Positions 4,296-60,435 of a stretch of DNA of 64,000 nt are shown piece after piece. The notes under the pieces were generated by a model. It ran no database searches and was not told the origin of the DNA. It saw nothing but the letters and a program-made list of their open reading frames with translations. Positions within the stretch are counted from its first letter, which is position 1, and each line of letters opens with the position of its first letter. A program made the position numbers and the translations under genes. Source of the DNA: Blastocatellia bacterium (GTDB lineage: Bacteria; Acidobacteriota; Blastocatellia; UBA7656; JADIYM01); the NCBI GenBank assembly GCA_044224215.1, contig JBGAKX010000005.1, positions 7,350 to 71,349 on the forward strand, given 5' to 3'.

Positions 4296-8309
<4,014 letters not shown>

Positions 8310-21992: not shown

Positions 21993-22436
21993 GCTGGTTG
22001 AAGGATGGCACGGCCCGCGACCCCTGGCCGCCGGTGCTTCGAGCGGCCGCAACCTGCAGAATCGTGCACGATTCTCGGCAGCTCCTCGAGTCGCGCACTC
22101 GTCCGCGGCCGGCTCTGGCCACGCAAAGAAGAATTGAAGGGCTTCTCAACTCGGAGTACGCTATGTCCGTCCCCAACCCTGGTTAGTGTGATTCCTTCCA
22201 AGTCACTATGGATTTGACGTCACGTCAGACGGTTGCCGGAACCTCGTTCTGCATGCCGAATTCATTCTTCAGCGACGTTGTCAGGCTGAACCGCCTCGGG
22301 ACCGTCAACGGTTGTTCGCCCGGCCGAAACCGATTGTGCGCGACGTCGCGTGCTGATGCTGTCGATTCTGGCTGTGCGGCCGGTTCATAAGTGCCTGTCC
22401 AGCTCGGTCGGGATCGCACAAGGAGCTCAATCAGAA

Positions 22437-35001: not shown

Positions 35002-35552
35002 CACATCCAGTCGTCGCCCTTTCACGTGCTTTCCAACGACCTCGTTCGGTGTGAGGCACGACGTCGTGCTTCGCGACGAGCGGAATGTGGGAATGGACCC
35101 TCGCCAGCGCTGCGCTGGCATCCCGGCACGCCGAATCCGACATGCACGGCACGAACTCTGTTGATCCGTCCCGCGCTTTCTTGTTCATGCCCCAATTCAC
35201 TCTGGATGAGTGCAACTTGCGTTCCGCGCATCGAGCCGACGTGAAAGCAATGCGACACACGCGTGGACTCCGGCGCGCCGTGGCGAAATGGGGCAGGCCT
35301 GTCCCAAAACTCCACGACTGCGCTGTCTCGTGGGTCCGGCCCTACGGTGCTGTTGGACGATCCGGCACGTGCTCCAAGGATCGTCCGAGACCAGATCAAC
35401 GTCCTGCAACTTTCGATCCGACTCGCGGATCGGAACGCAGGCGCCGCACGAATCGCCACGACTTGTCCGTCAATGCGCAGACATTCGGTCACGGATGGTA
35501 CGGGGGTTGCGTAAGTCAGGACGGATTTCCAATTCCATGCCGCGCCAGTCGA

Positions 35553-46018: not shown

Positions 46019-46028
46019 GCCAACTGCC

Positions 46029-48503
46029 ATGCGCCACGCTCATTCGCGGCCAGTTCTCAGCACCCGCCTGCTCGTCGTCATAGGATTGGTGCTCGTTGGC
46101 GGTGGATTCGCGGTCGTCGGTCTCTCCCAGGGCCGAGGTCCCGCAGCCGCTGCGACCGGGCCGCAGAAGGGCCCCGGCACCGGGTTCCTTCACAAAGATC
46201 ATTCGGGAATGGTGGCAATTCCGGGCCAGGCGGGGAAGACCCGCGAGCTGAAATGCGAGACGTGCCACGCGGTCTCCGTGGAGGCTCCGGATACAAACCG
46301 CTTCCCGGGTCCGGATCTCGAGAAGTACCCCGAGACGGCGAAGCTGGCCGCCACCGGCACCAAGCTGAACGGTCTTGGATTTCCCAAGTCGCACTCTGCG
46401 TGCGTCGAGTGTCACAAGGAGATCGCTCCCGGTCCTGGCGGCAAGTACTGCGGCCTTTGTCATGACACGCTGCAGAAGCTGCGCGTATTCCCGAAGGCGA
46501 ACGTCCAGCTGTCGCAGTTCGCCGACCGCTACTCGCACAAGGCCCACAAGGACTACTACGACAACAATCCCGACACCTTCAAGACCGCCGCGGTTTCAAG
46601 GCCCGCTGCGTCGCACGGCATTTTCGGGTCCGCGACCACGTTCGGTACGGCGGACATCCTGCGTGTCTCGTACGTCGCGCCGCCGGCTGAAAAGGGGCTT
46701 CGGTGCTCGACGTGCCACATCCCGGCGACGGGCGGCGTGAAGATGCAGCTGCCGCTGCATGCGAACTGCTTTGAATGCCACGCGAACGAAAAGATTGTCT
46801 CCAAGAAGGCCGACACCTATGCGATGAACTGCGTCGGCTGCCACGCCAACATGGCCTTGAACGATCCGACGGTCGACGAGAAGCTCAAGCCGGTCAAGGA
46901 CGCACTGAACGCGATCGCTCCGGTCATCGATCCGTTCCGTGTCGTCATCACGCCGTCCGGCGCGGGACACGCGCAGTTCAACCACGTCGGCGGCGCCGCG
47001 AAGTACCACGAGGTCCTCAAACCGGATGCCGGCAAGAGCGCCGGGAAGACCATCGAAGGCAAGATGGCCTGCCTGTTCTGCCACACATCGGTGGAGAAGG
47101 CCGCAACGCGCGCCCAGGTCATGGCGTTCGCGGTCAAGAAGACCGATCCTCAGCTCGTCCAGCCGCCGGCGTCCGCATGCGTGGTGTGCCACGTCCACGC
47201 GGTGCAGATGGTCGTTCCCGACAAGCCGTCCAAGACGGGCCGCGCGGGATGCACGGTCTGTCATACGGCGGCCGATGCCGCCAAGCCGGCTCCCGCAACA
47301 CACAGTCTGGGCGAGGCAGCTCCTGCGGCGACGCCGGCAAAGCCCGAGGCGACGCCTCCCGCGGCAAAGCCCGAACCGGCCAAGCCCACAACCGCGCCGG
47401 CGGCGAAACCCGAGCCTGCAAAGCCGGCGGCTCCGAAGCCCGAGCCGACAAAACCTGCGACCGCGCCGGCCGCGAAGCCCGTGGAAACCCCGAAGGTTGA
47501 GACGCCCAAACCGGCCGCGACGCCTGCGCCGGCAAAGCCCGAGACGCCAAAGGTCGAGCCACCCAAGCCCGCACCGACAGAAGCTCCCAAGACGGCCCCG
47601 GCGCCCGAACCCAAGCCTGCAGAACCCGCGGCGCCCAAGCCTCAGGCTGCACCTGCAAGCGGCGGCACGGTCGACTACTCAAAGGGCTACCCGCCCACAG
47701 CGCCCGGCTCGTCGCACCTGAGCCTACCGAACCCGATGCTGCTTGGGGATCCCAAGACCAGCGACCAGTGGGGTCTTGACGGAACGTGGGGGATTTCGAA
47801 GCTCACACACCAGGATCACTCCGAGAAGTACAAGGTTTCGTGCGCCACGTGCCATCACACGAACGGTGCAGGTAACGCGGCGATCGGCGAGCAGGTGCAG
47901 CGTTGCGTGAGCTGCCACAAGGCCGAGGGCGACGAGAAGAACCCGTCCAGCAAGGACGGCGACGAACTCTGGGTGAAGAACGCATTCCACCTGGGTGAAA
48001 CCGGTTGCATCGAGTGTCACAAGCGCGAGTCGGCCAAGAACCCGAATTCGAAGGCTGCGACGACGTGCGCAGGATGCCACCAGCCGAAAGGCAGCGCTGA
48101 CGCGGACCGCGTGCTGAAGGGCCTGTTCCGCGACGCTACGACGGCCGTCGCGTTCAAGGTTCCCGGCTTTGCAGACACGTGGCCTCGCTGGCAGACGCGG
48201 CCTGCCGGATTCGGACTGCTCGGTGGCCAAAGCCTCGCAGGGTCGTTCGGCGGCGCGTCTGTTCGGGCGCTCGTTTGCGACGTTCCGGCGCGACTCTGGT
48301 ATGCACAGTTCGCCGGGTCCGGGTCGCATCGCTCGGCGCGTGTCGTTTCGCACGCGCGGTGGCAACGGCATGAACCCTCGCATGCCGCGCGTTCTCGATC
48401 GCCGCAGGTTCAACTCGCGCCCTCGTGGCGTGGCGAACTGCCCAGACTCGCACTGGCGATCGCGCTCGTGGACCGGAACGCCGGGCACGGCTACAGGATC
48501 TGA
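46029..48503 (+). CDS. Multiheme cytochrome c, 13 CxxCH motifs, with an internal Pro/Ala/Lys-rich linker and a C-terminal tetraheme module
   Basis: Signal peptide/TM helix (LLVVIGLVLVGGGFAVVGL). Thirteen CxxCH motifs were counted (CETCH, CVECH, CGLCH, CSTCH, CFECH, CVGCH, CLFCH, CVVCH, CTVCH, CATCH, CVSCH, CIECH, CAGCH). The start lies 11 nt after the upstream gene stop. The last ~135 codons are Arg-rich and atypical (see findings). Confidence 0.8.
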   Translation: MRHAHSRPVLSTRLLVVIGLVLVGGGFAVVGLSQGRGPAAAATGPQKGPGTGFLHKDHSGMVAIPGQAGKTRELKCETCHAVSVEAPDTNRFPGPDLEKYPETAKLAATGTKLNGLGFPKSHSACVECHKEIAPGPGGKYCGLCHDTLQKLRVFPKANVQLSQFADRYSHKAHKDYYDNNPDTFKTAAVSRPAASHGIFGSATTFGTADILRVSYVAPPAEKGLRCSTCHIPATGGVKMQLPLHANCFECHANEKIVSKKADTYAMNCVGCHANMALNDPTVDEKLKPVKDALNAIAPVIDPFRVVITPSGAGHAQFNHVGGAAKYHEVLKPDAGKSAGKTIEGKMACLFCHTSVEKAATRAQVMAFAVKKTDPQLVQPPASACVVCHVHAVQMVVPDKPSKTGRAGCTVCHTAADAAKPAPATHSLGEAAPAATPAKPEATPPAAKPEPAKPTTAPAAKPEPAKPAAPKPEPTKPATAPAAKPVETPKVETPKPAATPAPAKPETPKVEPPKPAPTEAPKTAPAPEPKPAEPAAPKPQAAPASGGTVDYSKGYPPTAPGSSHLSLPNPMLLGDPKTSDQWGLDGTWGISKLTHQDHSEKYKVSCATCHHTNGAGNAAIGEQVQRCVSCHKAEGDEKNPSSKDGDELWVKNAFHLGETGCIECHKRESAKNPNSKAATTCAGCHQPKGSADADRVLKGLFRDATTAVAFKVPGFADTWPRWQTRPAGFGLLGGQSLAGSFGGASVRALVCDVPARLWYAQFAGSGSHRSARVVSHARWQRHEPSHAARSRSPQVQLAPSWRGELPRLALAIALVDRNAGHGYRI
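47272..47660 (+). repeat. Low-complexity tandem AKPEP/TPKVE-type repeats (Pro/Ala/Lys/Glu-rich linker) inside the 13-heme cytochrome gene
   Basis: Visible degenerate nucleotide repeats (aagcccgagcc..., gcgccggc...) encoding AAKPEPAKPTTAPAAKPEPAKPAAPKPEPTKP... Confidence 0.6.
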
Positions 48504-48662
48504 TGGGCGGCGGCCTGCACCTGGCGTTCGCCTTGTTTTCATCGAGTCGCTTCGAATTGGATTGAATCTCACGCAGGCAACTGGTTCAGGACGTGCCGGC
48601 GTTCCGCAAGTCGCGAGGTTGGCGACGAGTCCGGAGAGCCGTGTCCTCGACACACTCAGACC

Positions 48663-49523
48663 ATGAAAAGAACGATCCCTCTTCTTGCCCTCGTCGCGGC
48701 ACTCTCGGTCACCGCGTGGCTTTCCGACCGGACGAGCGCCCAGGATACGGCGTACAACTATGGGTCGTTCGATCACAAGGAGCACGACGCCGCACTCGAC
48801 AAATCCGCGCAGGAGCGCATCGCGTGCGACGTCTGCCATCGGCGCGACGACGCGAGCTCGCAGCTCTACTTTCCGGGCCACAATGCGTGCATTCAGTGTC
48901 ACGCGACGCAGTTCACGTCCCAGTCGCTCCAGATCTGCGCCGTCTGCCACAAGGACGTCGCGACGCAGGGGCGCGCGCTGAAGGACTTTCCCGCGCAGCG
49001 CAAGGACTACGGCGTCAGGTTCGACGGCGCGGGCAACAAGAGCCAGCACGTCGTCCACATGAAGGAAGCGCTCCCGGACGGCACCAAGATGTCGTGCTCC
49101 TTCTGCCATGCGGCGCAGGGCTCGAATATGGCATTCCCCTCGCACCCCGAGTGCTACGCGTGCCACACGCCAGGTGCGAATTCGAAGGCGGCGTCGCAGG
49201 AATTGAGCACGTGCTCGGTCTGCCACCCCGGCGCTACCGAGCCCAACTCCGAGATGCGACGTCTTGTCAGCACCCGACGCAATGACGCGCTGCCCTACCG
49301 GTTCCGGCATCTCGACCATAACCGGTCCGGCCGGATCGGCAACGATTGCGCCAAGTGCCACAACGACGCGGCCGGAATTCACGTGGCGTCCACCGCAACG
49401 CGCGAGCATCGGGTCAAACCGGGGTTCAACTGCTACGAGTGCCACCGAGGCGGGGGTCTGTCGCGGATCACTGAGACATCGTGCGGAAGCTGTCACGGCG
49501 TCGTCGTGTTCCCGCCGCTGTAG
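48663..49523 (+). CDS. Multiheme cytochrome c, 9 CxxCH motifs, periplasmic
   Basis: Signal peptide MKRTIPLLALVAALSVTAWLS. Nine CxxCH motifs (CDVCH, CIQCH, CAVCH, CSFCH, CYACH, CSVCH, CAKCH, CYECH, CGSCH). Confidence 0.8.
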   Translation: MKRTIPLLALVAALSVTAWLSDRTSAQDTAYNYGSFDHKEHDAALDKSAQERIACDVCHRRDDASSQLYFPGHNACIQCHATQFTSQSLQICAVCHKDVATQGRALKDFPAQRKDYGVRFDGAGNKSQHVVHMKEALPDGTKMSCSFCHAAQGSNMAFPSHPECYACHTPGANSKAASQELSTCSVCHPGATEPNSEMRRLVSTRRNDALPYRFRHLDHNRSGRIGNDCAKCHNDAAGIHVASTATREHRVKPGFNCYECHRGGGLSRITETSCGSCHGVVVFPPL

Positions 49524-49754
49524 ATTCATCCGTCCTCGAGCGCGCCGCGACAATCCTGCAGGAACAGGGCGTTGACATAACAGGGTCACGCACTTAGGAT
49601 TGTTGTCCTGCCGTGCGTCGAGCACGTGCACTCGGGACCTTAGCGAGATCCGACGTTGAAGCACCCAGGGAAGGCCGGCCACGAATGCGCTTCGGCGCCC
49701 GGTGTGAGCCGCACCCGTTTCTTGGAACACATTGAAGCCGGAGACCACACTTTC

Positions 49755-50291
49755 ATGAGATATGCCAAGGCCGTTCTCTGCATCTGCGCGCTGGCAGTAT
49801 TTGGCGCGCTGTCATTCCACGTTGCGACCTCGTCCGCTGCCTCCGTTGATCCGACCCAGGCTGCGGTTGACTACTCGAAGGGCTACCCTGTGGAAGCTCC
49901 GGGTGCGTCGCACATGAGCCTTCCGAACCCCATGCTGCTCGGCGACCCCAAGACGAGCGACCAGTGGGGCCTCGATGACACGTGGGGAATCGCGAAATTC
50001 ACGCACCAGGACCACACCGAGAAATACAAGGTGTCGTGCCATACGTGCCACCATACAAACGGCAAGGACAATGCCGCCCTGACCGAGAACGTCGACCGTT
50101 GCGTGAAGTGCCACATGGCCGAGGGCAACGAGAAGAACCCGACGAACGCGGCCGGCGACGAACTCGACATCAAGAACGCATTTCACATCGGTGAGACGGG
50201 CTGTATCGAGTGCCACAAGCGCGAATCAGAGAAGAATCCGAACTCGAAGGCCGCCGCGACATGCGCCGGCTGCCACGAGAAGAAGGGCTAA
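49755..50291 (+). CDS. Tetraheme cytochrome c (cytochrome c3/c7-like), paralogous to the C-terminal module of the 13-heme protein
   Basis: Start ATG at 49755 (MRYAKAVLCICALAVFGALSFHVATSSAAS signal peptide). Four CxxCH motifs. About 80 % identical over ~140 aa to residues encoded at 47671-48097. Confidence 0.8.
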   Translation: MRYAKAVLCICALAVFGALSFHVATSSAASVDPTQAAVDYSKGYPVEAPGASHMSLPNPMLLGDPKTSDQWGLDDTWGIAKFTHQDHTEKYKVSCHTCHHTNGKDNAALTENVDRCVKCHMAEGNEKNPTNAAGDELDIKNAFHIGETGCIECHKRESEKNPNSKAAATCAGCHEKKG

Positions 50292-50298
50292 CGCCATC

Positions 50299-50328
50299 AC
50301 ACGGGCCGTCCCCCAGGACGGCCCGTGT
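50299..50328 (+). terminator. Perfect 13-bp stem / 4-nt loop hairpin immediately after the tetraheme cytochrome gene
   Basis: ACACGGGCCGTCC-ccca-GGACGGCCCGTGT, 8 nt after the TAA stop. Seen directly. Confidence 0.55.
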
Positions 50329-50373
50329 CTCATCCCAGGGCGCCCCCGCGGCAACTGTTTGAATCGAAGCACC

Positions 50374-51927
50374 ATGTCGACACCACAGAATCCGGAAGTC
50401 GGACTCCCAGCCGATAGCCTACCCACCCAGGCGAAACAGACCTCAGGCACAAACTTCCTCGATCGCGTGCTCAAGCAGCTCAGCTCGGTTCGGTTTGGCG
50501 TATCGCTGCTGATCCTGATGATCATCCTCAGTATGACCGGGATGCTGATCATGCAGATCAACGTCGAGGGATTTGACAAGTACTACGCGACGCTCACCCC
50601 GTCGCAGCAATGGCTCTACACGGATCCGATTCTGCGAGCGATCCGCAACGTGACCGGATGGCGGCTCCAGGGATGGAACATCCTGTCGCTCGTCGACATC
50701 TACAAGTCGTACGTATTCATCACGCTGCTCGCCATTCTGACGCTGAACGTCATCCTCGCGTCGATAGACCACTTTCCAGGTGCGTGGCGTTACATCACCC
50801 GAAAGAAGCTCACGGCCTCGAAGCCGTATGTGCTTCACCAGACCTACAACGCGACGGTCGAGAGCGACGGAAGCGACGCCGAGGCGGCGCAGATTGCCGC
50901 CCTCTGTCGTCACCTTGGCTACACGCCGACGATCACGCGCGAGGCGTCGCGCACGACGGTCTTTGCAGAGCGCGGAGCGTGGAACCGGCTCGGTGCGTAC
51001 TTTGTCCACGTCGGCCTTCTCGTCATCTTCACTGCGGGATTTCTGACGTGGCGGTCGTCGCACACCGGCAGCATGACGCTCACGCCCGGCGCCGAGGCGA
51101 CGACGATTCAGGGCTTGCTGTACGACCTGGACCGCGTTCAGGTCGGCGAGTTCGCGCTTCCCTTCACCGTCGAATGCACCGACATCCAGCAGACGCTGAT
51201 CCGTCCGGACGGGTCGCTGGACGCGAGCAACACGGTCGACTGGTTCACGCGCATACGCATCGCGGACCCCGCAACGGGCAAGAACCTCGATGCCGACGTG
51301 CACATGAACAAGCCCGTCGACTATCGCGGCTACCGTTTCTTCCAGTCCAGTTATCAGAACGTTGCAAAGGCCCGGACGGTGACGCTGCAGATCGACCGGC
51401 CGAACGCGCAGCCTGAACTGGTCGAGTTGCGGGTGAACCAGCCGACGACGCTGTCCGACGGCCGTACGATCGTCTTTGCCAACTTCACCGGCAACGAGAC
51501 CGACGCAAACAACGCGACCGACTATGACAAGCCCGCCGCCGCGCTGCAGGTCGTCGGCGGAGCCGGGGGGCCGCCGCAGTCGTTCGTCGTTCGCGCGGCC
51601 GGAGCGCCTGTTGATTCGACGGGCGTCACTGCGCTCGGCGGTGCGACGGCCACGCTTGTGAGCTTTGAAAAGGTCGGAGCGAGCCACACGCTCTCGGTTC
51701 AGTACGACCCTGGTGCATGGGTTTTTTACATCGGCTCCGTTATTCTTGTGGCCGCATTGATGTCCGTGTTCTTCGCCTCGCACCGTCGAATCTGGTTTGT
51801 GCTTGAGAAGGACAAGGACGGAGCGCACAAGATCTATGTCGGCGGGCATGCCAACCGAAACCGCCCGGCGTTTGAGCGGCAGTTCAAGGACTTGGTAGCG
51901 GCGCTCGCGCCTACCGCGCCAGCGTGA
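50374..51927 (+). CDS. Cytochrome c biogenesis protein ResB/Ccs1 (system II, CcsB)
   Basis: N-terminal TM helix, large periplasmic domain, and C-terminal TM helices with the conserved His. ResB-like collinearity. Start ATG at 50374. The ORF-track start at 50191 overlaps the terminator. Confidence 0.75.
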   Translation: MSTPQNPEVGLPADSLPTQAKQTSGTNFLDRVLKQLSSVRFGVSLLILMIILSMTGMLIMQINVEGFDKYYATLTPSQQWLYTDPILRAIRNVTGWRLQGWNILSLVDIYKSYVFITLLAILTLNVILASIDHFPGAWRYITRKKLTASKPYVLHQTYNATVESDGSDAEAAQIAALCRHLGYTPTITREASRTTVFAERGAWNRLGAYFVHVGLLVIFTAGFLTWRSSHTGSMTLTPGAEATTIQGLLYDLDRVQVGEFALPFTVECTDIQQTLIRPDGSLDASNTVDWFTRIRIADPATGKNLDADVHMNKPVDYRGYRFFQSSYQNVAKARTVTLQIDRPNAQPELVELRVNQPTTLSDGRTIVFANFTGNETDANNATDYDKPAAALQVVGGAGGPPQSFVVRAAGAPVDSTGVTALGGATATLVSFEKVGASHTLSVQYDPGAWVFYIGSVILVAALMSVFFASHRRIWFVLEKDKDGAHKIYVGGHANRNRPAFERQFKDLVAALAPTAPA

Positions 51928-51937
51928 GGGAGACCGT

Positions 51938-53503
51938 ATGAGCACTATCAGTCGGATCGACGTTCACAACCTGCCATCGGGCAGCGAGCCGCTCTCGGCG
52001 CGCTTGACCGGCTGGCTGCCCGTCGCGATTCCCATCGCGCTGGCGGCGACCATCGTCTTCCTCCGGGTGCAGTTCGGCGAAACTCGCTTCCTGTATGACG
52101 GGACGCTGATTGTCCTCGCGCTCGTGTGCTTCCTGTTTGCGTCGGTGATCGGTCTCATCGAGATGTACGCGGACAAGTCGGTCCTCGGTCGATGGGGCCT
52201 CCTGATGGCATCGAGCGGCCTCATGTTCAACGCGGCCGCGTGGGGCACGCGTTGGGTCGCGGCCGGCGATCGCGAGGGCTGGATTCGATGGGTCTTCCGA
52301 TACGTGCCGTTTGCGAACCTCTATGACCTGTCGATCGCGTTTTCGATGGGCGCTGCACTGACGACCGTCATCATCTGTCGCAAGAAGGAGTCGCGCGTCG
52401 TCATGGGCGTGTCGATGTTGATGGCGGCGCTGATCGTCACGCTGGCGATCTTCCTCGGGCGCCAGTTCATCGATCTGCCGCCAGTGCTCGACAGCTACTG
52501 GCGGCCGATCCACGTCGGGATCGCGTCGACGAGCTACGGCGTCGTGCTCGTCTGCTTCAGCATTGCGGTGCTCTACCTGATCAAGGACGGGTTCAAGATC
52601 GAGGGGATGGGAGCGTTCGTCGCTATCCTCGGTCTCGGCATCTTTGGCACGATCAACCGCTTCTCGCTGATCACGAGCGGAACGTACGGCCTCAATGTCT
52701 TTTTTGGCGCGGGCGACGAGCGATCGACACTTCCGCTTCGCGCGACGGTACCGGTCGTTGGCCCGCTCATGGTCCTGGCAATGCTGCTGCTCGTCGGCGC
52801 GCTCGCGTGCTTCGCCGCCGACCTCTATCGAGGGGACGAGCGGCTCAAGAAGTACGGGTTCTGGGCGATGTGGGGCTCGGCTGCGGCGCAGCTTGGGTCG
52901 ATCGTGACGCTCTTCTACCAGATGAAGGCGATCAACGGCACGATCGCCTCGCGGATCGACCTGGCGTCGCAGGCTGGCTATCCCAAGGTTGCTGAATGGC
53001 TTACGGCCAACGGCATCCCGTTGACGACTGCCGGAGTGCAGCAGGCGAACAAGGTCTTCGAGATGAACAACGCGCAGCTCAGCGTGTCCGGAAATTCGAA
53101 CCCGGTCGAACTCGGCGCGCTGTTCACCCTGCTCGCCCTCACGGGGCTGGTTCTGATGTTCGGCTTCCGCACCGAGCGCGTCATCGAACGGCTGCCGTCG
53201 CTCGAGCGGCTCGACGAGCTCATGTACAAGACCGGCGCCGTTGCGTTTACCGGTCTCGCGATGCTGCTCATCACGGGAGCCGTCTGGGCGAACGAGTCGT
53301 GGGGACGGTACTGGGGCTGGGATTCCAAGGAGACGGGCGCGCTCGTGGCGTGGCTCGCGTACGCGGGCTTCCTGCACACGCGCATCGCTCACGGCTGGAG
53401 CGGACGACGCAGCGCGTACTTTGCCATCGTCGGATTCCTGCTCGTCATCTTCACGTATCTCGGCGTCAGCTACCTGCTGCCGGGCCTTCACTCCTACGCA
53501 TGA
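51938..53503 (+). CDS. ccsA: Cytochrome c-type biogenesis protein CcsA/ResC (heme exporter/lyase with WWD domain)
   Basis: Tryptophan-rich WWD motif (WGRYWGWDSKETGALVAWLAYA), flanking conserved His residues, and polytopic membrane topology. Confidence 0.85.
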   Translation: MSTISRIDVHNLPSGSEPLSARLTGWLPVAIPIALAATIVFLRVQFGETRFLYDGTLIVLALVCFLFASVIGLIEMYADKSVLGRWGLLMASSGLMFNAAAWGTRWVAAGDREGWIRWVFRYVPFANLYDLSIAFSMGAALTTVIICRKKESRVVMGVSMLMAALIVTLAIFLGRQFIDLPPVLDSYWRPIHVGIASTSYGVVLVCFSIAVLYLIKDGFKIEGMGAFVAILGLGIFGTINRFSLITSGTYGLNVFFGAGDERSTLPLRATVPVVGPLMVLAMLLLVGALACFAADLYRGDERLKKYGFWAMWGSAAAQLGSIVTLFYQMKAINGTIASRIDLASQAGYPKVAEWLTANGIPLTTAGVQQANKVFEMNNAQLSVSGNSNPVELGALFTLLALTGLVLMFGFRTERVIERLPSLERLDELMYKTGAVAFTGLAMLLITGAVWANESWGRYWGWDSKETGALVAWLAYAGFLHTRIAHGWSGRRSAYFAIVGFLLVIFTYLGVSYLLPGLHSYA

Positions 53504-53519
53504 CATTCCGTTGAGTCTC

Positions 53520-53550
53520 GGCGCGGTGTTCAACCCGTGAACGCCGCGCC
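53520..53550 (+). terminator. 13-bp stem (one G·U) / 5-nt loop hairpin after ccsA
   Basis: GGCGCGGTGTTCA-acccg-TGAACGCCGCGCC, seen directly. It overlaps the ORF-track start of the next gene, which argues for the downstream start at 53585. Confidence 0.5.
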
Positions 53551-53584
53551 GGGACTTCACCATCGTTTCCACGCCCACCTGATC

Positions 53585-54475
53585 ATGAGCGACACGACCA
53601 ACACGAACGCAAACATCGAGCTGATGAAGGCCAAGCTCGAAGCCCACAAGAAGGACAAGCTGCTGCATCTGCTGAGCGGGCTCTTCGTTGGCCTGCTGGT
53701 CGGATTCTTCGGAGCCAACTGGATGAACGCGCGGCCGGCGGCGATCGGACCCGCCGCCGGACAGGCAGCCGTGGGCGGTGCAGACCTTCCGGCCGATCAT
53801 CCCGCCGTCGAGGGCGGAGGCGCGGGAGCAGGAGCGGGCGCGGCGATGCCTGAGGTGCAGGCCAAGCTGAAGGCGGCGGACGACAACCCCCAGGACTTCG
53901 ACGCGCAGATGGAAGCCGCGGCGATGTTTTTCCGGATCAACAACTTTGCCAAGTCGGTCGAGTATCTTGAACGTGCGAGCAAGCTGAAGCCGAATGATCC
54001 GGACACGCTCGCAAACCTCGCGAGGGTCCAGTTGCGCAGCGGGGACATGGAGCAGGCAATTGCAAACGCCCGCAAAGCGTACGACCTGAAGCCCGACGAC
54101 TTTGACAACACCGTGCTGCTGGCCAATCTGCTGTTCGACACCGAGAAGTTCGTGGACGCGCAGCCGCTCTACGAAAAGGCGCTCGTCATGAAGCCCGACG
54201 ACGTCGACGTCCGCACGGATCTCGGCACGAGCTACTTCAAGGCGGGCAATCCCGACAAGGCCATCGCCACCTACCGCGAATCGCTCAAGCGCGACCCCAA
54301 GCACCAGAATACACTCGTCAACATCGCGCATGTCGCCATTGCAAAAGGTGACTCTGCGGTCGCCGAGGACGCGCTGACCAAGCTCGCGGCGGTCAATCCG
54401 CAGAACGCCGAACTCGCCAGCTTGCGGACGCAGCTCGACGAGCTCAAGAAGACTGGAAAGATTCCGACACACTAG
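53585..54475 (+). CDS. Membrane-anchored TPR-repeat protein
   Basis: TM helix (LLHLLSGLFVGLLVGFFGANW), Gly/Ala-rich spacer, then several TPR units (AKSVEYLERASKLKPNDPDTLANLARV...). Confidence 0.6.
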   Translation: MSDTTNTNANIELMKAKLEAHKKDKLLHLLSGLFVGLLVGFFGANWMNARPAAIGPAAGQAAVGGADLPADHPAVEGGGAGAGAGAAMPEVQAKLKAADDNPQDFDAQMEAAAMFFRINNFAKSVEYLERASKLKPNDPDTLANLARVQLRSGDMEQAIANARKAYDLKPDDFDNTVLLANLLFDTEKFVDAQPLYEKALVMKPDDVDVRTDLGTSYFKAGNPDKAIATYRESLKRDPKHQNTLVNIAHVAIAKGDSAVAEDALTKLAAVNPQNAELASLRTQLDELKKTGKIPTH

Positions 54476-54570
54476 GTCCGTGCGTCGCGTTGCCCGCCGG
54501 CGCTAACCGGCACCAACGAAACGCTCAAAGACCAGCCCCGCGGCTGCTTCGTCGTTGCATATCGGTCCGG

Positions 54571-54603
54571 TTGGTGATATCTGTGGCACCAACACACTGG
54601 TGC
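54571..54603. promoter_or_regulatory. Composite palindrome built from three TGGTG/CACCA hexamers (TTGGTG-N10-CACCAA overlapping GCACCA-N6-TGGTGC) about 110 nt upstream of the cNMP-binding gene
   Basis: Seen directly. A candidate dimeric transcription-factor operator. Confidence 0.35.
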
Positions 54604-54708
54604 TCATAGTTTGTTTCCGGAGGACACCGGCTTTCGCCGATTCCTCCTTGCTTTTCCCCACACATTCCCAGGTCTCAACCCCCTGCGGGGCCGGACTCGG
54701 GAGGAACC

Positions 54709-57174
54709 ATGCCACAAGAGATCCAGAAGCGTCGGGATGTGCTCGCGGCCATCAAGAGTGTGGCCGCCATTGCAGACATCACCGCTGAGCATGCCGGGCA
54801 TTTCGAGCACGAGATCGACCTCGAAGTCATCGTCTACGGCCGCAACTACAACGGCAAGAAGGTCGGTCCGTACGTGCGCCTCCTCGTCTACCAGAACGGC
54901 GAGGACGTCATGCGCGAGGGCGAGTGGGGCGGGAACACGTTCTACGTCGTGGTCGAGGGCAAGGCCGACGTGCTGATCGACAGCGCGAACGGCATCGTCA
55001 AGGTCGCCGAGATATCGCAGGGCGACATCCTCGGCGAGATGTCGATCCTTGCGGGTGTGCCGCGATCCGCGACCGTTCGTGCACCGCAGGGCGGCGCCGT
55101 GAAGGTGCTCGAGGTTCAGCGTCCGGCGCTCCGGTTGCTGCGCAAGCTGCCGCATTTTGGTGAGTCGCTCGACCGGTCGTATCGCCATCACGGCAGAAAC
55201 CAGATTCTCCAGGTACTCGGGTCCGTGGAGCACCTGTCGACGGACGCGATCAAGGCGCTTGAGGGCATCTCGCAGTTCCGCGTGTACGGCAAGGGGCACG
55301 TCCTGTTCCGTGCGGGCGAGCAGATTCGTCGTGTCTACCTTCTCAAGACCGGCTGGCTGCGAATGTCGCAACAGGCTAAGACCTCGCTGCTCGCGGCGGT
55401 GCCCGGGTATGGCAACGTGAAATCGCTGTCGTGGGACACCCCGTCGCCGGACAGCTACTTTGGTCCGTCACACGCGTTCGGCCTGGAGGGCGTCCAGCAG
55501 GATGCAACGTGGCGCCACTCGGGCGTGCTGCTCGGACGCACCGAGATGCTCGAGGTGTCGGTGTCGGAGCTCCGAAAGAACCCGCAGCTCGTTGCGCTCC
55601 TTGGGCACGCGCTGCAGACCCTCGAGATCAAGGACGCGCAGGCCGACAAGGGTCCGCCGGCCCCGGTCGCCGAGGCGCAACGCGAACTGATCGCGAACGG
55701 GCTCGTCGACGGGACGAACCTGTTGCTGATGGACATGGAGCTGTGCGTCCGGTGCGGCAACTGCTCGCTTGCCTGCAATCACCAGCACGGCAACTCGAGA
55801 CTGCTGCGACGGGGCATTTCGATCACGCGCCCCGAGACGCTCAAGAAGAACTCGCATACGCAGCACCTCATGAATCCGTCGGTCTGCATGCACTGCATGG
55901 ACCCCGAGTGCATGACGGGCTGTCCGACGGGAGCGATCGGTCGCTTCCCCGGCGGCTATGTCGACATCGATCCGAAGACGTGCATCGGGTGCGGCGACTG
56001 CGCGACGCAGTGCCCGTACGACGCCATCTCGCTGATCGCGCGACGGCCAAAGCCTGGTGAGAAATCGAATGCGCTTGTCGAGATGTTCAGCCTGGCGCCT
56101 GCGCCGATACCCGAGTCGGTCGAAACGACCGAGGACCTCGTTGCGGTCAAGTGCAACCTTTGCAGCAATACGCCGCTGAACCCGCCGGGCGCGAAGTCGC
56201 GCAAGTACAGCTGCGAAGAGAACTGTCCAACTGGTGCGCTTCTGCGTGTGAGCCCGCGTGTCTACTTTGACGAGATCGCCAACATCGAGGGCGTCATCTT
56301 CAAGGACGATACGCACATCGTTTCCAAACACACGTCGCACCGCGATCCCAAGAAGCGACTCATTCACCTGCTCGGCATCGTGCTCACGCTGGCGCTTGCC
56401 GCGGTGAGCGTGGCGGCGCTTTACAGAATCGGCCGCGACAATCCGCTCCTTGGATCGTGGTTCAACTTCTACTGGTTCACCGGGATTGTTGGTCTTCTCG
56501 CGATCACGTGGGTGATGTTGTACCCGATCCGCCGACAGATCTTCCGCAAACGCGTCATTCCGTTGCGCTACTGGATGCTGTCGCATGCCTACATGGGCGT
56601 GATCGCGGGCGTGCTCCTTCTCATGCACGCCGGGACGCGCGGTGGCGGCCTGCTGACCACGTCGCTGATGATCACGTTCGACCTGGTCATCCTGACGGGG
56701 TTGTGGGGCATCGCCACGTACTACGTCGTGCCGAGAGTGCTCACAAAGATCGAGGAGCAACCGCTCCTCGTCGACGACCTCATCCTCAGACGGCAGGAAC
56801 TGACTGAGGAGATCGCGGACACGGTCGCCCGCGCGTCGCAGCCGACGCGTGATGCGATCGAGAAGGGCGTCATTCCGCACTTCCTGACGTTTGGCTATCT
56901 GCTGGGACAGTATTTCTCGGCAAAGCCGCTCGCGGTGAATACTGCAGAAGCCCGCAAGCATTTTGAGCAGACGGCGATGACGCTTCCTCCCAACGAGCGC
57001 GATTCGTTCTTTGGCGCTGTCGAGCGCGCGGCGACGCTGCGTCGGGTCGACGCGCTCATCCTGCTGCACCGGTCGCTCAAGGCGTGGCTCGCACCGCACG
57101 TCCTGACGACGTCGCTCATGCTCGCCCTGATGATCGTGCACATCATTCAGGTCATCTATTTCGCCGTGAAATGA
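54709..57174 (+). CDS. Cyclic-nucleotide-binding (2x cNMP) domain protein fused to a four-cluster [4Fe-4S] ferredoxin module and a C-terminal His-containing polytopic membrane domain
   Basis: cNMP-binding signature GEMSIL...RSATVRA and a second degenerate CAP-like domain. Cysteine motifs: CVRCGNCSLAC, CMHCMDPECMTGCP, CIGCGDCATQCP, and CNLCSN...C-x3-CP (the NrfC/PsrB-like tetra-cluster pattern). At least 5 C-terminal TM helices. Confidence 0.7.
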   Translation: MPQEIQKRRDVLAAIKSVAAIADITAEHAGHFEHEIDLEVIVYGRNYNGKKVGPYVRLLVYQNGEDVMREGEWGGNTFYVVVEGKADVLIDSANGIVKVAEISQGDILGEMSILAGVPRSATVRAPQGGAVKVLEVQRPALRLLRKLPHFGESLDRSYRHHGRNQILQVLGSVEHLSTDAIKALEGISQFRVYGKGHVLFRAGEQIRRVYLLKTGWLRMSQQAKTSLLAAVPGYGNVKSLSWDTPSPDSYFGPSHAFGLEGVQQDATWRHSGVLLGRTEMLEVSVSELRKNPQLVALLGHALQTLEIKDAQADKGPPAPVAEAQRELIANGLVDGTNLLLMDMELCVRCGNCSLACNHQHGNSRLLRRGISITRPETLKKNSHTQHLMNPSVCMHCMDPECMTGCPTGAIGRFPGGYVDIDPKTCIGCGDCATQCPYDAISLIARRPKPGEKSNALVEMFSLAPAPIPESVETTEDLVAVKCNLCSNTPLNPPGAKSRKYSCEENCPTGALLRVSPRVYFDEIANIEGVIFKDDTHIVSKHTSHRDPKKRLIHLLGIVLTLALAAVSVAALYRIGRDNPLLGSWFNFYWFTGIVGLLAITWVMLYPIRRQIFRKRVIPLRYWMLSHAYMGVIAGVLLLMHAGTRGGGLLTTSLMITFDLVILTGLWGIATYYVVPRVLTKIEEQPLLVDDLILRRQELTEEIADTVARASQPTRDAIEKGVIPHFLTFGYLLGQYFSAKPLAVNTAEARKHFEQTAMTLPPNERDSFFGAVERAATLRRVDALILLHRSLKAWLAPHVLTTSLMLALMIVHIIQVIYFAVK

Positions 57175-57176
57175 GG

Positions 57177-57199
57177 GCAAGGGCCCGCCCGGCCCTTGC
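57177..57199 (+). terminator. 9-bp perfect hairpin (GCAAGGGCC-cgccc-GGCCCTTGC) followed by TTCCTC, 3 nt after the stop
   Basis: Seen directly. Confidence 0.5.
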
Positions 57200-57231
57200 T
57201 TCCTCGAGGCGCTCGAACCGCAACCTACGCC

Positions 57232-58701
57232 ATGGCAACGAGCAAATTCACTATCATTCGCAAGGACCTCCAGACGGACCCGTCTGTTGTCGACAGTGAC
57301 GGCCTCACGATCGGGCGCCTTGTCAGCAACGACCTGCCGCTCAACCACCCCGAGGTTTCGCGCACGCACGCGGGTATCAAGGAGGTCGGTGGCGACTACT
57401 GGATATTCAACCTCTCGAATGCCAACGGGACCATCCTCAACGGTGCGCCGGTAGACAGCGCACCGCTGGCGGCTGGCGACGTCATTCAGCTCGGGCCATT
57501 CACGTTGCTTGTTTCGTTCACCGATCGCGTGCTGACGCTCACGGTCGAGGTGAGCGTCAACCCGATGCGCGTCGAGAATGCCGGCGCAGCGGGTGCGACG
57601 GTCGATCAGGCCGGCAAGACGATGATGCTCAACCCGGCCATGTTGGCTGCCCAGCAGCAGAAGGCAGCGCCGGGCGGCACTCAGCGACTGGCAATGACAG
57701 GCAAGCTCACCGGCATGCTCGCCAAGCCGGAAGAGCTCGCGCTGAAGGTCTTCTGGGAGAAGCGCCAGCGCGACGAAGGCAAGATGGCCGAGCGCACGGA
57801 CCTGAAGCCGAACCTTCAAAAGGGCCGTGTCGGCAAGATCCGCTTCAACTGGAGATCGTCGTCCGACCTGCGCAGGCCGTGGCCCGTCGGGCTGTTTCTG
57901 TGGGGTACGATCCTTGTCGCGGTGGGCGCGATCGCAGCGACGTTTCTCTACAAGCAGGCGTACACGAAGGGGCCGCTCGCCGACGTGCATACGCGCACCG
58001 CGCTCGCTCAGGCAGAGCCGGCTCTCGCGATCGCAAAGACCGCAAACGCCAACTCGTGCACGACGTGCCACTCGCTCACAAAGTCGATGGCCGGCCAGTG
58101 TGCCGAGTGCCACACGACGCCCGGGTTCAAGTCTACCGTTTCGCACGAACACGAGATGGCCGGCGTCACGTGCTCCGAGTGCCATGGACAGGACCATCGC
58201 GGCAACGCATTCAGGCTCGCGGCGGCCGAGACGTCTTGCGACACGTGTCACAGGCAGGGCTACGTCTTCAAGAGCGTTGCCCAGGGGAAGGACATCGTCC
58301 TGCAGACGCCGCACGGCGGCGCGAACATCGGCTACCCCGTGACCAACGGCCAGTGGACGTGGGCCGGCTGGCCTGAAGAGAAATGGAAGAAGCGCGGATT
58401 GCCGAAGACCGCGGCGGCCTTTGACATCAAGGGCCAGTTCCACGTCATCCACGTCGACAACGGAAAGCCGCTGGAGCAGGTTCAGTGCTCGGACTGCCAC
58501 ACCAAGGGCTTCGAGCCTGCAAACATCACGAAGGGCGTCCGCGAGTCGTGCGCGTCGTGCCACGGCGACACTGTGGCCCAGGCGGGCGCGTCGCCGTCGA
58601 GGGGCGCGCAGTGCACGTCCTGCCACCAGCAGCATACCGAGGGCAAGGACCCGTACGCGCTTGTGCGCGCGCGCGAGGTCAACGCGGCTCGAACAAAATG
58701 A
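57232..58701 (+). CDS. FHA-domain protein fused via one TM helix to a periplasmic heptaheme cytochrome c
   Basis: N-terminal FHA fold (TIGRLVSNDLPLNHPEVSRTHAGI...GDYWIFNLSNANGTILNG, i.e. the GR...S.H...N.NGT pattern). TM helix PVGLFLWGTILVAVGAIAATFLY. Seven CxxCH motifs (CTTCH, CAECH, CSECH, CDTCH, CSDCH, CASCH, CTSCH). Confidence 0.75.
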   Translation: MATSKFTIIRKDLQTDPSVVDSDGLTIGRLVSNDLPLNHPEVSRTHAGIKEVGGDYWIFNLSNANGTILNGAPVDSAPLAAGDVIQLGPFTLLVSFTDRVLTLTVEVSVNPMRVENAGAAGATVDQAGKTMMLNPAMLAAQQQKAAPGGTQRLAMTGKLTGMLAKPEELALKVFWEKRQRDEGKMAERTDLKPNLQKGRVGKIRFNWRSSSDLRRPWPVGLFLWGTILVAVGAIAATFLYKQAYTKGPLADVHTRTALAQAEPALAIAKTANANSCTTCHSLTKSMAGQCAECHTTPGFKSTVSHEHEMAGVTCSECHGQDHRGNAFRLAAAETSCDTCHRQGYVFKSVAQGKDIVLQTPHGGANIGYPVTNGQWTWAGWPEEKWKKRGLPKTAAAFDIKGQFHVIHVDNGKPLEQVQCSDCHTKGFEPANITKGVRESCASCHGDTVAQAGASPSRGAQCTSCHQQHTEGKDPYALVRAREVNAARTK

Positions 58702-58758: not shown

Positions 58759-60435
58759 ATGAAGAAGTCGCAACTCATCATTACCATCCTGATGCTCGTC
58801 ATTCTGGTCGCGGCTGCATTTGGCACGCGTTACCTGAATGTGAATCTCGGCGCCGTGCCCTGGTACGGCTGGACGGCACTCGCGATCGTGCTGATCGTCA
58901 TCGGAGTGATCGGCCTGATACTCGAGACGTCACGCGACCGGCGGGACCTGAAGGCTGCCACGATCGAGGCGGAACGCGAAGCCGCCGAACGGCTCGAGGC
59001 ATCCAAGCACCCTGACCTTGCGGTAAACGTCGCCGCATTGGACCCCGGTGGACCCGCGTATCCGCACCCTGTCATCAACTCGGCCACGTGCATCGGCTGT
59101 CATGCGTGCGTGGACGCTTGCCCGCATGACGTGCTCGCAATCGTGAACGGCATCTCCACTCCGATCGCGCTCGATCAGTGCATGGAGGACACCGGGTGCC
59201 AGGTTGAATGCCCGACCAGCCCCAAGTCCTGCATCGTGGTCAACACAAAGAAGAAGATTCCGGAGCGGAAGGTTCCAAAGCGCGACAACCGATTCATGAC
59301 CAATGTTCCCGGCATCTACCTGATCGGCGACGTATCGGGAGTTCCACTCATCAAGAACGCGATCAACGAGGGCGGCGCGGTCATCGAGCACATCGCCGAG
59401 GACCTTCAGAAGAAGGGCGGCAACGGCCAGGCGGAATACGATGTCGCGATCGTCGGCGTCGGACCCGGCGGTCTTTCGGCCGCGGCGCTCGCAAAGCAGA
59501 AGGGTCTGCGCTACGTAGCGCTCGAACAGGACAAGGTCGTCGCCACGATTCAGGCCTACCCGGCCGGCAAGTACGTGTTCTTCAAGCCCGACACGGTCGA
59601 GACGGACGGCGGCATCGAGCTACCCGGCGCCGGTCTTCCAAAGGAGCAGATGATCGGCTCGTGGCTTGACACGATCAAGAACAACTCGCTCAAGATCAAC
59701 GAGTACGAGACGTGCAAGAGCGTCAAGAACGAGAACGGCCTCTTCGTGGTCCGCACCGATTCGGAGAAGACCAAGCAGAGCGCCGAGTACAGGTCACAGA
59801 CGGTCATCATCGCCGTGGGTGGCCGCGGCACGCCGATGCGCCTCAAGGTGCCAGGCGAAGAGATCAAGCTGCAGGTGACGCCGAGCGCTCCGGTTATGTC
59901 GTCCTTCTGCGTCAAGTGCGGCCAGCCGCGCGAGGGCGCGGCGACCGTCTGTCCGAAGTGCAACGCTGCGTATCCGTCTCGCATTCCGCCGCCGTTCGAG
60001 GACGAGAAGGTGAAGTATCGCCTCAGCGATCCGAATCTTTTCTCGGGCAAGCACTGCATCGTCGTTGGCGCCGGCAACTCGGCGATCGAGTGCGCGGTGG
60101 ATCTCGCGTCGTATCGCTCGGAAGACGGCACGCAGATCATCGGATGGCGCGACAACGTCGTCACGCTCGTCATCCGGAGCGACTTCAAGGGCGACCTGAA
60201 GCTCGGCAACAAGATGCTGTGCTATGAGTGCATGGACGAGGGGAAGATCACGACCCACTTCCGAAAGGCATTCAAGGAGATCACGCCGACCGAGGTCGTG
60301 CTCATGAGCGCGCGCGAGCGCGACCCGGCCACGGCAAAGGAGACCGACCGAATCCGCAACGACTACATCTTTGCGCTGATCGGCGGCGACAAGCCGACCA
60401 AGTTCCTCGAGAGCATGGGAATCCAGATCGGCTAG
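58759..60435 (+). CDS. Membrane-anchored 2x[4Fe-4S] ferredoxin domain fused to an FAD/NAD(P)-binding (thioredoxin-reductase-like) oxidoreductase with an inserted zinc ribbon
   Basis: Two N-terminal TM helices. Ferredoxin motifs [12 protein letters not shown] and C-x5-C-x3-CP. Two Rossmann GxGxxG motifs ([25 protein letters not shown]). Zinc ribbon CVKCG...CPKCN. Confidence 0.7.

Follow-up and report, generated by a model that had tools for sequence, protein, structure and literature searches.

The closest described counterpart of the system reported here is the 'NHC' cluster of the Fe(II) oxidizer Ferrigenium straubiae. This cluster is uncharacterized and encodes a nonahaem cytochrome c that carries an FHA domain and a single transmembrane (TM) helix, a five-TM protein without an InterPro match, and a [4Fe-4S] protein (bioRxiv 10.64898/2026.01.22.701106, section 6.3.2). 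According to its authors, the combination of an FHA domain with a multihaem cytochrome had not been reported before, and they could not interpret the five-TM protein (bioRxiv 10.64898/2026.01.22.701106). Here, we describe a similar arrangement in a window of 64,000 nucleotides (nt) from a Blastocatellia bacterium (contig JBGAKX010000005.1, positions 7,350 to 71,349). In this window, one gene encodes a fusion of two domains of the type that binds cyclic nucleoside monophosphates (cNMP), a ferredoxin with four iron-sulfur (FeS) clusters, and a five-TM domain with four conserved His residues. On balance, we favor the reading that this fusion protein is the central subunit of a three-protein inner-membrane redox module, in which an NAD(P)H-FAD-FeS-haem b-haem c chain would be regulated by cNMP and phospho-Thr. 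In our literature searches, no characterized cNMP-regulated FeS/cytochrome electron-transfer protein was found, and the Ferrigenium preprint provided the sole architectural counterpart.

The locus shares with the NHC cluster the same three building blocks and their predicted topology, i.e., a cytosolic FHA domain on a single-TM multihaem cytochrome c, a five-TM protein, and a cytosolic 4Fe-4S protein, a correspondence that was matched by description only. On the other hand, these components are encoded by three separate genes in Ferrigenium, whereas the 4Fe-4S and five-TM parts are fused to each other and to two cNMP domains here. The cytochrome has nine c haems there and seven here, where it is also accompanied by a Fer4-flavoprotein partner. 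The authors of the preprint recognized no redox motif in their five-TM protein, whereas the pattern of four His residues found across the present family suggests two b haems.

The other comparable systems are similar in parts. The ferredoxin part belongs to the 16-Cys, four-[4Fe-4S] fold class of NrfC, PsrB, DsrO, DmsB, and ArrB, which were its best NCBIfam and PDB sequence matches, but those proteins are Tat-exported or reside in molybdoenzyme or NrfD-type complexes, and none of them is fused to a membrane or cNMP domain. NarH-NarI and the dihaem (type B) succinate:quinone and fumarate reductases have a cytoplasm-facing FeS chain and a dihaem b anchor that moves electrons across the bilayer, as is predicted here, and the flavoprotein would lie at the cytoplasmic end as in complex II. 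However, no sequence relationship to NarI or SdhC was detected, the FeS part and the anchor are fused here, no Mo or succinate catalytic subunit is present, and the periplasmic partner is a multihaem cytochrome c and not (only) quinone. NADPH oxidase (NOX), MsrQ, and the prokaryotic cytochromes b561 (FdnI, HyaC, and CybB) match the predicted layout in having NAD(P)H and flavin inside and two stacked bis-His b haems with His pairs 13-14 residues apart, whereas the present protein has five TM helices instead of four or six, a 115-amino acid (aa) cytoplasmic insert, and an FeS chain between flavin and haems. Tmc, Hmc, and DsrMKJOP of sulfate reducers share the concept of connecting the periplasmic and cytoplasmic redox pools through a multihaem cytochrome c in the periplasm, a cytochrome b in the membrane, and an FeS protein in the cytoplasm, but their FeS proteins are of the HdrD/CCG type, their cytochrome b is of the NarI type, and they contain no flavoprotein, cNMP domain, FHA domain, or comparable fusions. 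The module resembles NarHI, dihaem complex II, NADPH oxidase, and Tmc/Hmc functionally and is a member of none of them.

CAP-type domains normally control an output. The first cNMP domain of the fusion protein (domain A) is a genuine member of PF00027 and has the Gly-Glu...Arg-Ser/Thr-Ala cassette, as in CAP/CRP-FNR proteins, protein kinase A (PKA) regulatory subunits, and cNMP-gated channels, and the tandem resembles that of PKA R. Unlike these proteins, it has no helix-turn-helix (HTH), kinase-inhibitor, or channel output, and the regulated entity would be an electron-transfer chain.

The fusion gene is one reading frame of 821 aa without internal stops. It consists of a conserved N-terminal segment, domain A, a second cNMP-binding-like domain (domain B), the 4x[4Fe-4S] ferredoxin, and the five-TM domain with four His residues, in this order. 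The Pfam scan detected cNMP_binding in two stretches (E 1.2e-20; 73.7 bits for PF00027 versus a gathering cut-off of 27.5) and Fer4 families over aa ~340-515, whereas aa ~540-821 had no Pfam match. A search of 5.8 billion proteins revealed more than 120 clusters of full-length homologs of 794-847 aa with 54-76% identity, mainly from metagenome-assembled genomes (MAGs) of Blastocatellia, which are named 'cyclic nucleotide-binding domain-containing protein' or 'Fe-S-cluster-containing dehydrogenase component/CRP-like cAMP-binding protein'. Among GTDB species genomes, the fusion protein had 195 matches. Because full-length homologs are abundant, the fusion is real and conserved and not a frameshift artefact. 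An earlier note on this DNA had proposed the same architecture, with two CAP-type cNMP domains, an NrfC/PsrB/DsrO-like four-cluster ferredoxin, and a His-bearing membrane domain, and the scans bore it out. The note had also asked whether the membrane part could be a separate gene behind a hidden stop or frameshift. This was ruled out by the unbroken reading frame, the fused full-length homologs, and the offset between the FeS and membrane parts, which was constant in 84/84 fetched Blastocatellia-type loci. The membrane part is naturally a separate gene in Thermoanaerobaculia and probably also in the Ferrigenium cluster, which supports the functional reading and does not harm it.

Residue conservation in the FeS and cNMP parts was read from an alignment of 29 homologs. 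All 16 Cys residues of the ferredoxin part were invariant (C346/349/352/356, C393/396/401/405, C425/428/431/435, and C482/485/502/506), forming the motifs CxxCxxCxxxC, CxxCx4CxxxCP, CxxCxxCxxxCP, and CxxCx16CxxxCP, respectively. Fer4_11 was matched with an E value of 9.3e-9. The top NCBIfam matches, DsrO, DmsB, ArrB, TtrB, and NrfC, were all far under their cut-offs (69.5/200 for DsrO, 58.4/214 for DmsB, and 46.5/378 for NrfC), and PsrB (2vpw_B), ArrB (6cz7_B), and HycB were matched in the PDB. An NrfD-type or molybdopterin gene was not found at the locus.

No Tat or Sec signal was found in the fusion protein. The N-terminal KRR is replaced by KHR, KHS, or NHK in homologs, so the second Arg is not conserved, and the segment after it carries K, E, and D and lacks a hydrophobic h-region. 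Five K/R residues precede TM1, and four lie in the loop between TM2 and TM3, as judged by hydropathy and charge analysis. Because a signal peptide is missing and the inner loops are rich in K/R, the cNMP part, the FeS part, and the long loop between TM4 and TM5 are predicted by the positive-inside rule to be cytoplasmic, with the C-terminus outside. Tat export of the FeS domain was rejected on the grounds of the non-conserved KRR, the missing h-region, the N-terminal position of the cNMP domains, and the K/R-rich segment before TM1. The missing signal and the inner K/R bias support the view of the earlier note that the FeS clusters are cytoplasmic, unlike those of NrfC/PsrB.

The hydropathy profile of the membrane domain shows TM helices at aa ~551-569, 589-607, 623-641, 647-669, and 795-820. 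In an alignment of 54 divergent representatives, H626 and H640 on TM3 were conserved in 54/54 and H797 and H811 on TM5 in 51/51 aligned sequences, together with R608, W622, and W793, whereas H544, H553, and H787 were not conserved. The conserved His residues reported in the earlier note are thereby confirmed and narrowed down to four. At ~25% identity, the sole invariant columns were R608, H626, H640, G664, G667, W793, H797, and H811. Both His pairs have the form H-x13-H, 14 residues apart, and TM3 and TM5 both run from the inside to the outside. Each pair follows an invariant Trp by 3-4 residues (Trp-x3), with invariant Gly on the neighboring helix and an invariant Arg at the inner face. H155 and H169 of FdnI show the same spacing in an hhalign superposition. 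This pattern is the classical signature of two bis-His b haems stacked across the membrane, which are predicted here from residue conservation, and it fits the b-haem site that the earlier note had considered possible. The helical insert between TM4 and TM5 comprises about 115-118 aa, is present across the stand-alone family, and is the highest-confidence region of both predicted models, with a predicted local distance difference test score (pLDDT) of ~85-92; it is possibly a docking surface.

Neither Pfam nor the PDB contained a sequence match to the membrane domain. When 1.84 billion representatives were searched exhaustively with a profile, 1,673 relatives were obtained with E<=1e-3, of which 335 had E<=1e-10. 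They included stand-alone proteins of 270-300 aa, other cNMP+Fer4 fusions of 623-946 aa, and the protein P0134 described below. Among 31 relatives examined, sub-threshold matches to DUF4405, Ni_hydr_CYTB, and Ferric_reduct were found in 14/31, 10/31, and 6/31, respectively, with best E values of 5e-4 to 2e-3, and a few precomputed family matches of the same weak kind also exist for the relatives. The window protein itself matched none of these families (Ni_hydr_CYTB PF01292, Ferric_reduct PF01794, and DUF4405 PF14358). Comparison by hhalign with single E. coli sequences (NarI, FdnI, MsrQ, and CybB) gave probabilities of 0.1-2.8%, and that with a profile of six E. coli paralogs (FdnI/FdoI/HyaC/CybB/YodB/YceJ) gave 4.7%. 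Assignment to a known cytochrome b family was not possible with such matches. Because formal membership of known families is not demonstrable, the domain is treated as its own family, which appears to be a new family of predicted dihaem cytochromes b.

The two cNMP domains differ in their phosphate-binding cassettes. That of domain A reads G109-E110-MSILAGVP-R119-S-A-T122, with G109, R119, and T122 invariant and E110 conserved to at least 90%, and it aligns with, and is near-identical to, 'GELAL..PRAATV' of PKA RI. The PDB sequence matches of the N-terminal part were PKA/PKG regulatory domains. The cassette of domain B is degenerate (FGLEG...W268): Leu/Val has replaced the ribose-contacting Glu, and an invariant Trp has replaced the phosphate-binding Arg. 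A Thermoanaerobaculia homolog keeps an intact cassette, FGEAAL..ARTATV, at the domain B position. Of the two cNMP domains claimed in the earlier note, only domain A is competent for cNMP as judged by these residues, and domain B shows the cassette loss by which that note would recognize a degenerate, non-binding domain. The 'cNMP-gated' electron transfer that it suggested is plausible. No HTH family was found in the Pfam and NCBIfam scans of the fusion protein, which does not fit a transcription factor of the CRP/FNR type. The segment before domain A, aa 1-55 (54709-54873; IDLEVIVYGRNYNGKKVGPYV), is very highly conserved and mostly invariant.

Synteny was counted over 84 loci carrying the fusion gene (designated by L numbers), with those having sufficient flank as denominators. 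The gene directly downstream of the fusion gene encodes partner 1 in 71/71 loci. Partner 1 has an FHA domain at aa 38-100 in the cytoplasm, a TM helix at aa 233-251, and seven CxxCH haem c sites in the periplasm. The FHA residues GR...SxxH...NG are canonical in the window sequence, and the strict pattern was found in 61/82 orthologs. The gene for partner 2 was present in 54/57 loci. This flavoprotein has two N-terminal TM helices, a Fer4 dicluster, and a two-Rossmann FAD/NAD(P)H fold (Pyr_redox_3, YpdA-like) that keeps both GxGxxG/A dinucleotide motifs. Its best NCBIfam match, YpdA-type bacillithiol-disulfide reductase, was below the cut-off (127.6 vs 339.9). The synteny of the partners holds even where the flanking genes differ entirely. 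In some loci, a gene for a PIG-L deacetylase (BshB/MshB-like) is inserted between the FHA-haem c and flavoprotein genes (L003/L004 14042-14965, and also L017). This gene and the YpdA-like flavoprotein point to a possible connection with low-molecular-weight thiols.

Gene fusions tie the components together. In three Thermoanaerobaculia loci (L089, L090, and L091), one protein of ~790 aa contains Pyr_redox_3 (aa 7-286), two cNMP domains, and a four-cluster ferredoxin. The next genes encode a stand-alone five-TM protein of 276-279 aa with the four His residues and then an FHA-multihaem c protein, followed in L089 and L090 by an HbpS-like protein. Residues 361-777 of the fusion are colinear with aa 56-519 of the window protein (28% identity, E 1e-45), and its N-terminus aligns with the window flavoprotein (E 1e-32). 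In addition, P0134, a protein of 1277 aa, contains seven CxxCH motifs (aa 708-874), an extra TM helix (954-972), and the four-His membrane domain (1009-1275), and its predicted topology is consistent with a periplasmic cytochrome fused to a b-type domain. Taken across lineages, these pairwise joins connect the flavoprotein, the cNMP sensor, the ferredoxin, and the membrane domain, which is the standard signature of one functional unit. The role of a transmembrane electron-transfer subunit proposed in the earlier note is supported by the b-haem-like His pattern and by these fusions, which tie the protein to flavoproteins and multihaem cytochromes. In Thermoanaerobaculia, phospho-Thr control seems even heavier: the multihaem cytochrome has two FHA domains, and an extra PatA_N(DUF4388)+FHA protein precedes the module (L089 2644-3603 and L090 2485-3390).

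In the mechanism that we favor, cytoplasmic NAD(P)H would reduce the FAD of the flavoprotein, and electrons would pass through its Fer4 clusters to the four [4Fe-4S] clusters of the fusion protein. They would then move to an inner haem b at the cytoplasmic face (H626 and H797), to an outer haem b at the periplasmic face (H640 and H811), and finally, through partner 1 with its seven c haems, to soluble or outer multihaem cytochromes. Outward flow is favored because both the redox gradient and the membrane potential would drive it, whereas both would oppose inward flow to NAD(P)+. The module would act as an electron-export valve, comparable to an NADPH oxidase or dihaem complex II whose electrons go to cytochromes c and not to O2 or quinone. 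Switching by cNMP and a Ser/Thr kinase is suggested by the intact domain A cassette and the canonical FHA residues, in that cNMP binding at domain A and phospho-Thr recognition by the FHA domain would turn the wire on and off. Tight control of a potentially wasteful NAD(P)H-oxidizing valve would be sensible.

Several points weigh against this mechanism. No significant match of the membrane domain to a cytochrome b was found by sequence, profile, or fold. In the two AlphaFold models, pLDDT was <50 in the FeS region and 45-65 in the TM regions, which is too low for inter-cofactor distances to be read, and the full-length model, with a pLDDT of 59, was discarded as unusable for inter-domain geometry. 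The flavoprotein gene is missing from three loci whose flanks are ample. P0134, known from one metagenomic representative, is a possible mis-call and is to be taken with caution. In a non-exhaustive survey, the large open reading frames (ORFs) of the window included no adenylate or guanylate cyclase and no Ser/Thr kinase. The cofactors, the direction of flow, the use of quinone, and the substrate of the flavoprotein are inferred.

A bolder version of the mechanism is that the module is a quinone-independent, second-messenger-gated export valve, which we put forward only tentatively and consider somewhat doubtful. In this version, cNMP and Ser/Thr-kinase signals would open a direct path from NAD(P)H through FAD, ~6 FeS clusters, two b haems, and seven c haems, through which cytoplasmic reducing power would be discharged onto multihaem cytochromes of the periplasm or the cell exterior. 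Its basis would be a widespread and so far unrecognized dihaem b family of more than 1,600 clusters at 50% identity that are annotated as 'hypothetical protein'. To our knowledge, the known routes to extracytoplasmic cytochromes run through the quinone pool (CymA, ImcH/CbcL, NapC, and Ndh2/demethylmenaquinone). A direct flavin-FeS-haem b wire, if true, would be a new electron-export route in abundant soil Acidobacteria, which have many multihaem cytochromes without an assigned function. It would also give a cofactor and a role to a large 'hypothetical' five-TM family, including the component left uninterpreted in the 2026 study of the Fe(II) oxidizer. It would be an unusual principle of regulation for cNMP or phospho-Thr to act directly on an electron-transfer chain rather than on transcription or channels. 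These claims are accessible to mutagenesis through the invariant His, Cys, and cassette residues.

Among the alternatives, a quinone-coupled dehydrogenase survives best, although we regard it as rather unlikely. According to this reading, the FeS-haem b protein and the flavoprotein would exchange electrons with menaquinone like dihaem complex II or NarHI, either as an NAD(P)H:quinone oxidoreductase or by reducing a cytoplasmic acceptor with quinol. In this view, the FHA-heptahaem c protein would act separately as a quinol dehydrogenase like CymA or NrfH, and quinone would link it to the rest. It is established that a flavoprotein, an FeS protein, and a dihaem anchor make up type-B succinate:quinone reductase and that the single-TM multihaem proteins CymA and NrfH are quinol dehydrogenases. 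The Ferrigenium preprint proposes the latter function for its FHA-nonahaem protein. The weak Ni_hydr_CYTB matches point in the same direction, since FdnI and HyaC, members of that family, carry quinone sites. However, no quinone-site motif and no significant homology to quinone-reactive cytochromes b were identified, and the 71/71 adjacency of the cytochrome c gene and the heptahaem c-membrane fusion in P0134 argue for a physical complex. The direct-wire and quinone-coupled readings are compatible and not mutually exclusive.

Electron uptake in the inward direction is less likely still. Here, periplasmic or extracellular donors such as Fe(II), reduced humics, or other cells would deliver electrons through the multihaem cytochromes, b haems, and FeS clusters to the flavoprotein, which would reduce NAD(P)+ or a cytoplasmic disulfide, e.g., that of a low-molecular-weight thiol. 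The Ferrigenium counterpart occurs in an Fe(II) oxidizer and was proposed as an inward route, and the sub-cut-off YpdA match and the PIG-L gene inserted in the operon of L003, L004, and L017 would suit a thiol-disulfide substrate. Such flow would nevertheless run against the membrane potential, and by established bioenergetics, the reduction of NAD(P)+ (-320 mV) by donors at the level of Fe(II) is strongly uphill, while the operon contains no coupling-ion module. Blastocatellia are known mainly as aerobic heterotrophs.

It is improbable that the assembly is a redox or second-messenger sensor, in which the FeS clusters and haems would report the redox state of the cytoplasm or membrane for relay by the cNMP and FHA domains, with net flux being incidental. 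The signalling domains are dense (two cNMP domains and one to two FHA domains, with the extra FHA/PatA_N protein in Thermoanaerobaculia), and an output would be expected of CAP-type domains, but the Pfam and NCBIfam scans found no output domain (HTH, kinase, cyclase, or channel) in the three proteins. Moreover, ~6 FeS clusters, two b haems, and seven c haems with an NAD(P)H flavoprotein exceed the needs of a sensor by far, and in close relatives another 26 c-haem sites lie beside the module, as does a dedicated set of System II maturation genes. Finally, it is very improbable that the four membrane His residues are not haem ligands and have a metal-ion, structural, or transport role in a mere FeS tether, because, although no significant similarity to haem proteins was found and the Ferrigenium authors found no redox motif in their five-TM protein, the identical 14-residue His pairs on two inside-to-outside helices in a Trp, Gly, and Arg context form a bis-His dihaem pattern, the recurring weak family matches are exclusively to haem b families, and the domain is always paired with FeS and haem c partners.

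Table 1. Features of the fusion gene and its surroundings, in positions of the window
Feature	Position	Strand	Details and basis
Accessory same-strand cluster	44150..54475	+	Pfam matches and haem counts; in closest relatives only
Accessory Big_9/HbpS-like protein	44150-46018	+	
Accessory 13-haem MtrC/MtrF-like cytochrome	46029-48503	+	
Accessory 9-haem c7-like cytochrome	48663-49523	+	
Accessory tetrahaem c3	49656-50291	+	
Accessory ResB, CcsA, and CcmH/CycH-like TPR protein	within 44150..54475	+	ORF for ResB 50191-51927
Promoter-like element	54555..54583	+	TTGCAT (54555-54560, -35-like), 13 nt, GTGATATC (54574-81)
Two overlapping inverted repeats	54570..54603	.	GTTGGTG-N10-CACCAAC 54570-54593; GCACCA-N6-TGGTGC 54586-54603, then T-rich tail
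Ribosome-binding site GGGAGG	54699..54704	+	5 nt before ATG; TCGGGAGG invariant in alignment of five ortholog upstream regions
Fusion gene, 821 aa	54709..57174	+	ORF, domain scans, full-length homologs, alignment
cNMP-binding domain A, aa ~56-145	54874..55143	+	Best stretch of Pfam PF00027, aa 60-141
Domain A phosphate-binding cassette, G109-E110...R119-S-A-T122	55033-55074	+	Intact
cNMP-binding-like domain B, aa ~178-290	55240..55578	+	Second PF00027 stretch; beta-barrel in predicted model
Four-cluster ferredoxin, aa ~338-516	55720..56256	+	Pfam matches (Fer4_11 etc.); 16 invariant Cys; predicted cytoplasmic
Five-TM membrane domain, aa ~547-821	56347..57171	+	Hydropathy, charge bias, residue conservation
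Invariant H626/H640 on TM3	56584-86, 56626-28	+	
Cytoplasmic helical insert, TM4-TM5	56734..57078	+	Present across stand-alone family
Invariant H797/H811 on TM5	57097-99, 57139-41	+	
Partner 1, FHA-1TM-heptahaem c	57196..58701	+	Pfam FHA, Cytochrom_c3_2, Cytochrome_C7; motif and TM counts
Partner 2, flavoprotein	58759..60435	+	Pfam, NCBIfam, TM helices

The region upstream of the fusion gene contains a promoter-like element, in which the GTGATATC region is read as an extended -10 (TG-n-TATCTG) behind a -35-like hexamer with a 17-nt spacer; it is a conserved motif and not a proven promoter, and a strict sigma-70 scan of the upstream region gave no match. TTGCAT-N13-GTG(A/G)TAT(C/T) was found with the same spacing, 90-135 nt before the start codon, in 9/53 ortholog upstream regions, which are those of the closest relatives, compared with a mean of 0.75 and a maximum of 3 matches in shuffles. 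More distant orthologs carry GATTGACTAA instead (25/53 upstream regions). Because upstream motifs are conserved, the fusion gene probably heads its own transcription unit.

The earlier note had described a palindromic operator-like element before the gene. A palindrome is present, and its exact pattern is expected 0.08 times per window by chance in a post hoc test, but the inverted repeats were not conserved in the orthologs examined (L001-L004, L005, L008, L092, and L093), and the left arm overlaps the conserved promoter-like motif. The second inverted repeat, GCACCA-N6-TGGTGC, scores as a weak terminator-like hairpin. The operator reading was set aside because the palindrome is missing from orthologs and the region is better explained by the promoter-like motif; an operator at this position is possible but unsupported. 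In L001 (GCA_963852865.1), the spacer between the TPR gene and the fusion gene (8830-9800) is 1.2 kb instead of ~230 nt and is filled with several copies of a repeat of ~120-240 nt, e.g., 'cacgacgacccgctcgttgcacgaa.ccgctgcgcga.aggtagcgacc' and 'gggtgatcagtaccgcgagcgacagcgagcgggtggtcctgaaatcggaccgatcac', which may be an element like a miniature inverted-repeat transposable element or a repetitive extragenic palindrome (MITE/REP-like).

The order of the accessory genes upstream is repeated in L001, L005, L008, and L092, whereas ResB, CcsA, and the TPR protein are missing from more distant loci. A dedicated role of the module in cytochrome c maturation, to which these adjoining genes point, was ruled out as its general function, since they occur only in the closest relatives (L001, L005, and L008, with the order also in L092). 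The gene for the 9-haem c7-like cytochrome was found in 24/50 long loci, and many loci hold further periplasmic multihaem cytochromes. HbpS-like (PF03928) proteins are encoded next to the module not only in Blastocatellia, as in the window, but also in Thermoanaerobaculia (L089 9421-11127 and L090 9163-10860). The one in the window also has Big_9, Cadherin_5, and a signal peptide, and it is a candidate for another conserved partner outside the cytoplasm. The mechanically called ORFs of the tetrahaem c3 and of ResB share 100 nt and have long non-conserved N-terminal extensions. Their true starts are probably internal, at Met35 (MRYAKAVL..., signal peptide) for the c3 and around MSTPQNPEV for ResB.

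Some of the GTDB-listed third-party annotation (TPA) and MAG records that carry the Blastocatellia-type operon are titled 'uncultured Heliomicrobium', 'Heliobacteriaceae', or 'Clostridia' (L006, L007, L012, L017, L022, L024, L027, L031, L033, L042, L046, L051, L054, and L084). They have 52-69% protein identity and the same synteny, and their titles look taxonomically mislabelled.

Elsewhere in the window, a sucrose synthase gene adjoins a gene for a fusion of sucrose-phosphate synthase and sucrose-6F-phosphate phosphatase (30400-32817 and 32836-35121, both on the minus strand), a pair that represents a sucrose pathway of the plant/cyanobacterial type in an acidobacterium. The window also encodes a 696-aa CCP/MauG-like dihaem peroxidase (22350-24440, plus strand), a 7TM receptor with an intracellular HD hydrolase (38891-41212, plus strand), and a 1,337-aa hybrid histidine kinase with Reg_prop repeats (4296-8309, minus strand).

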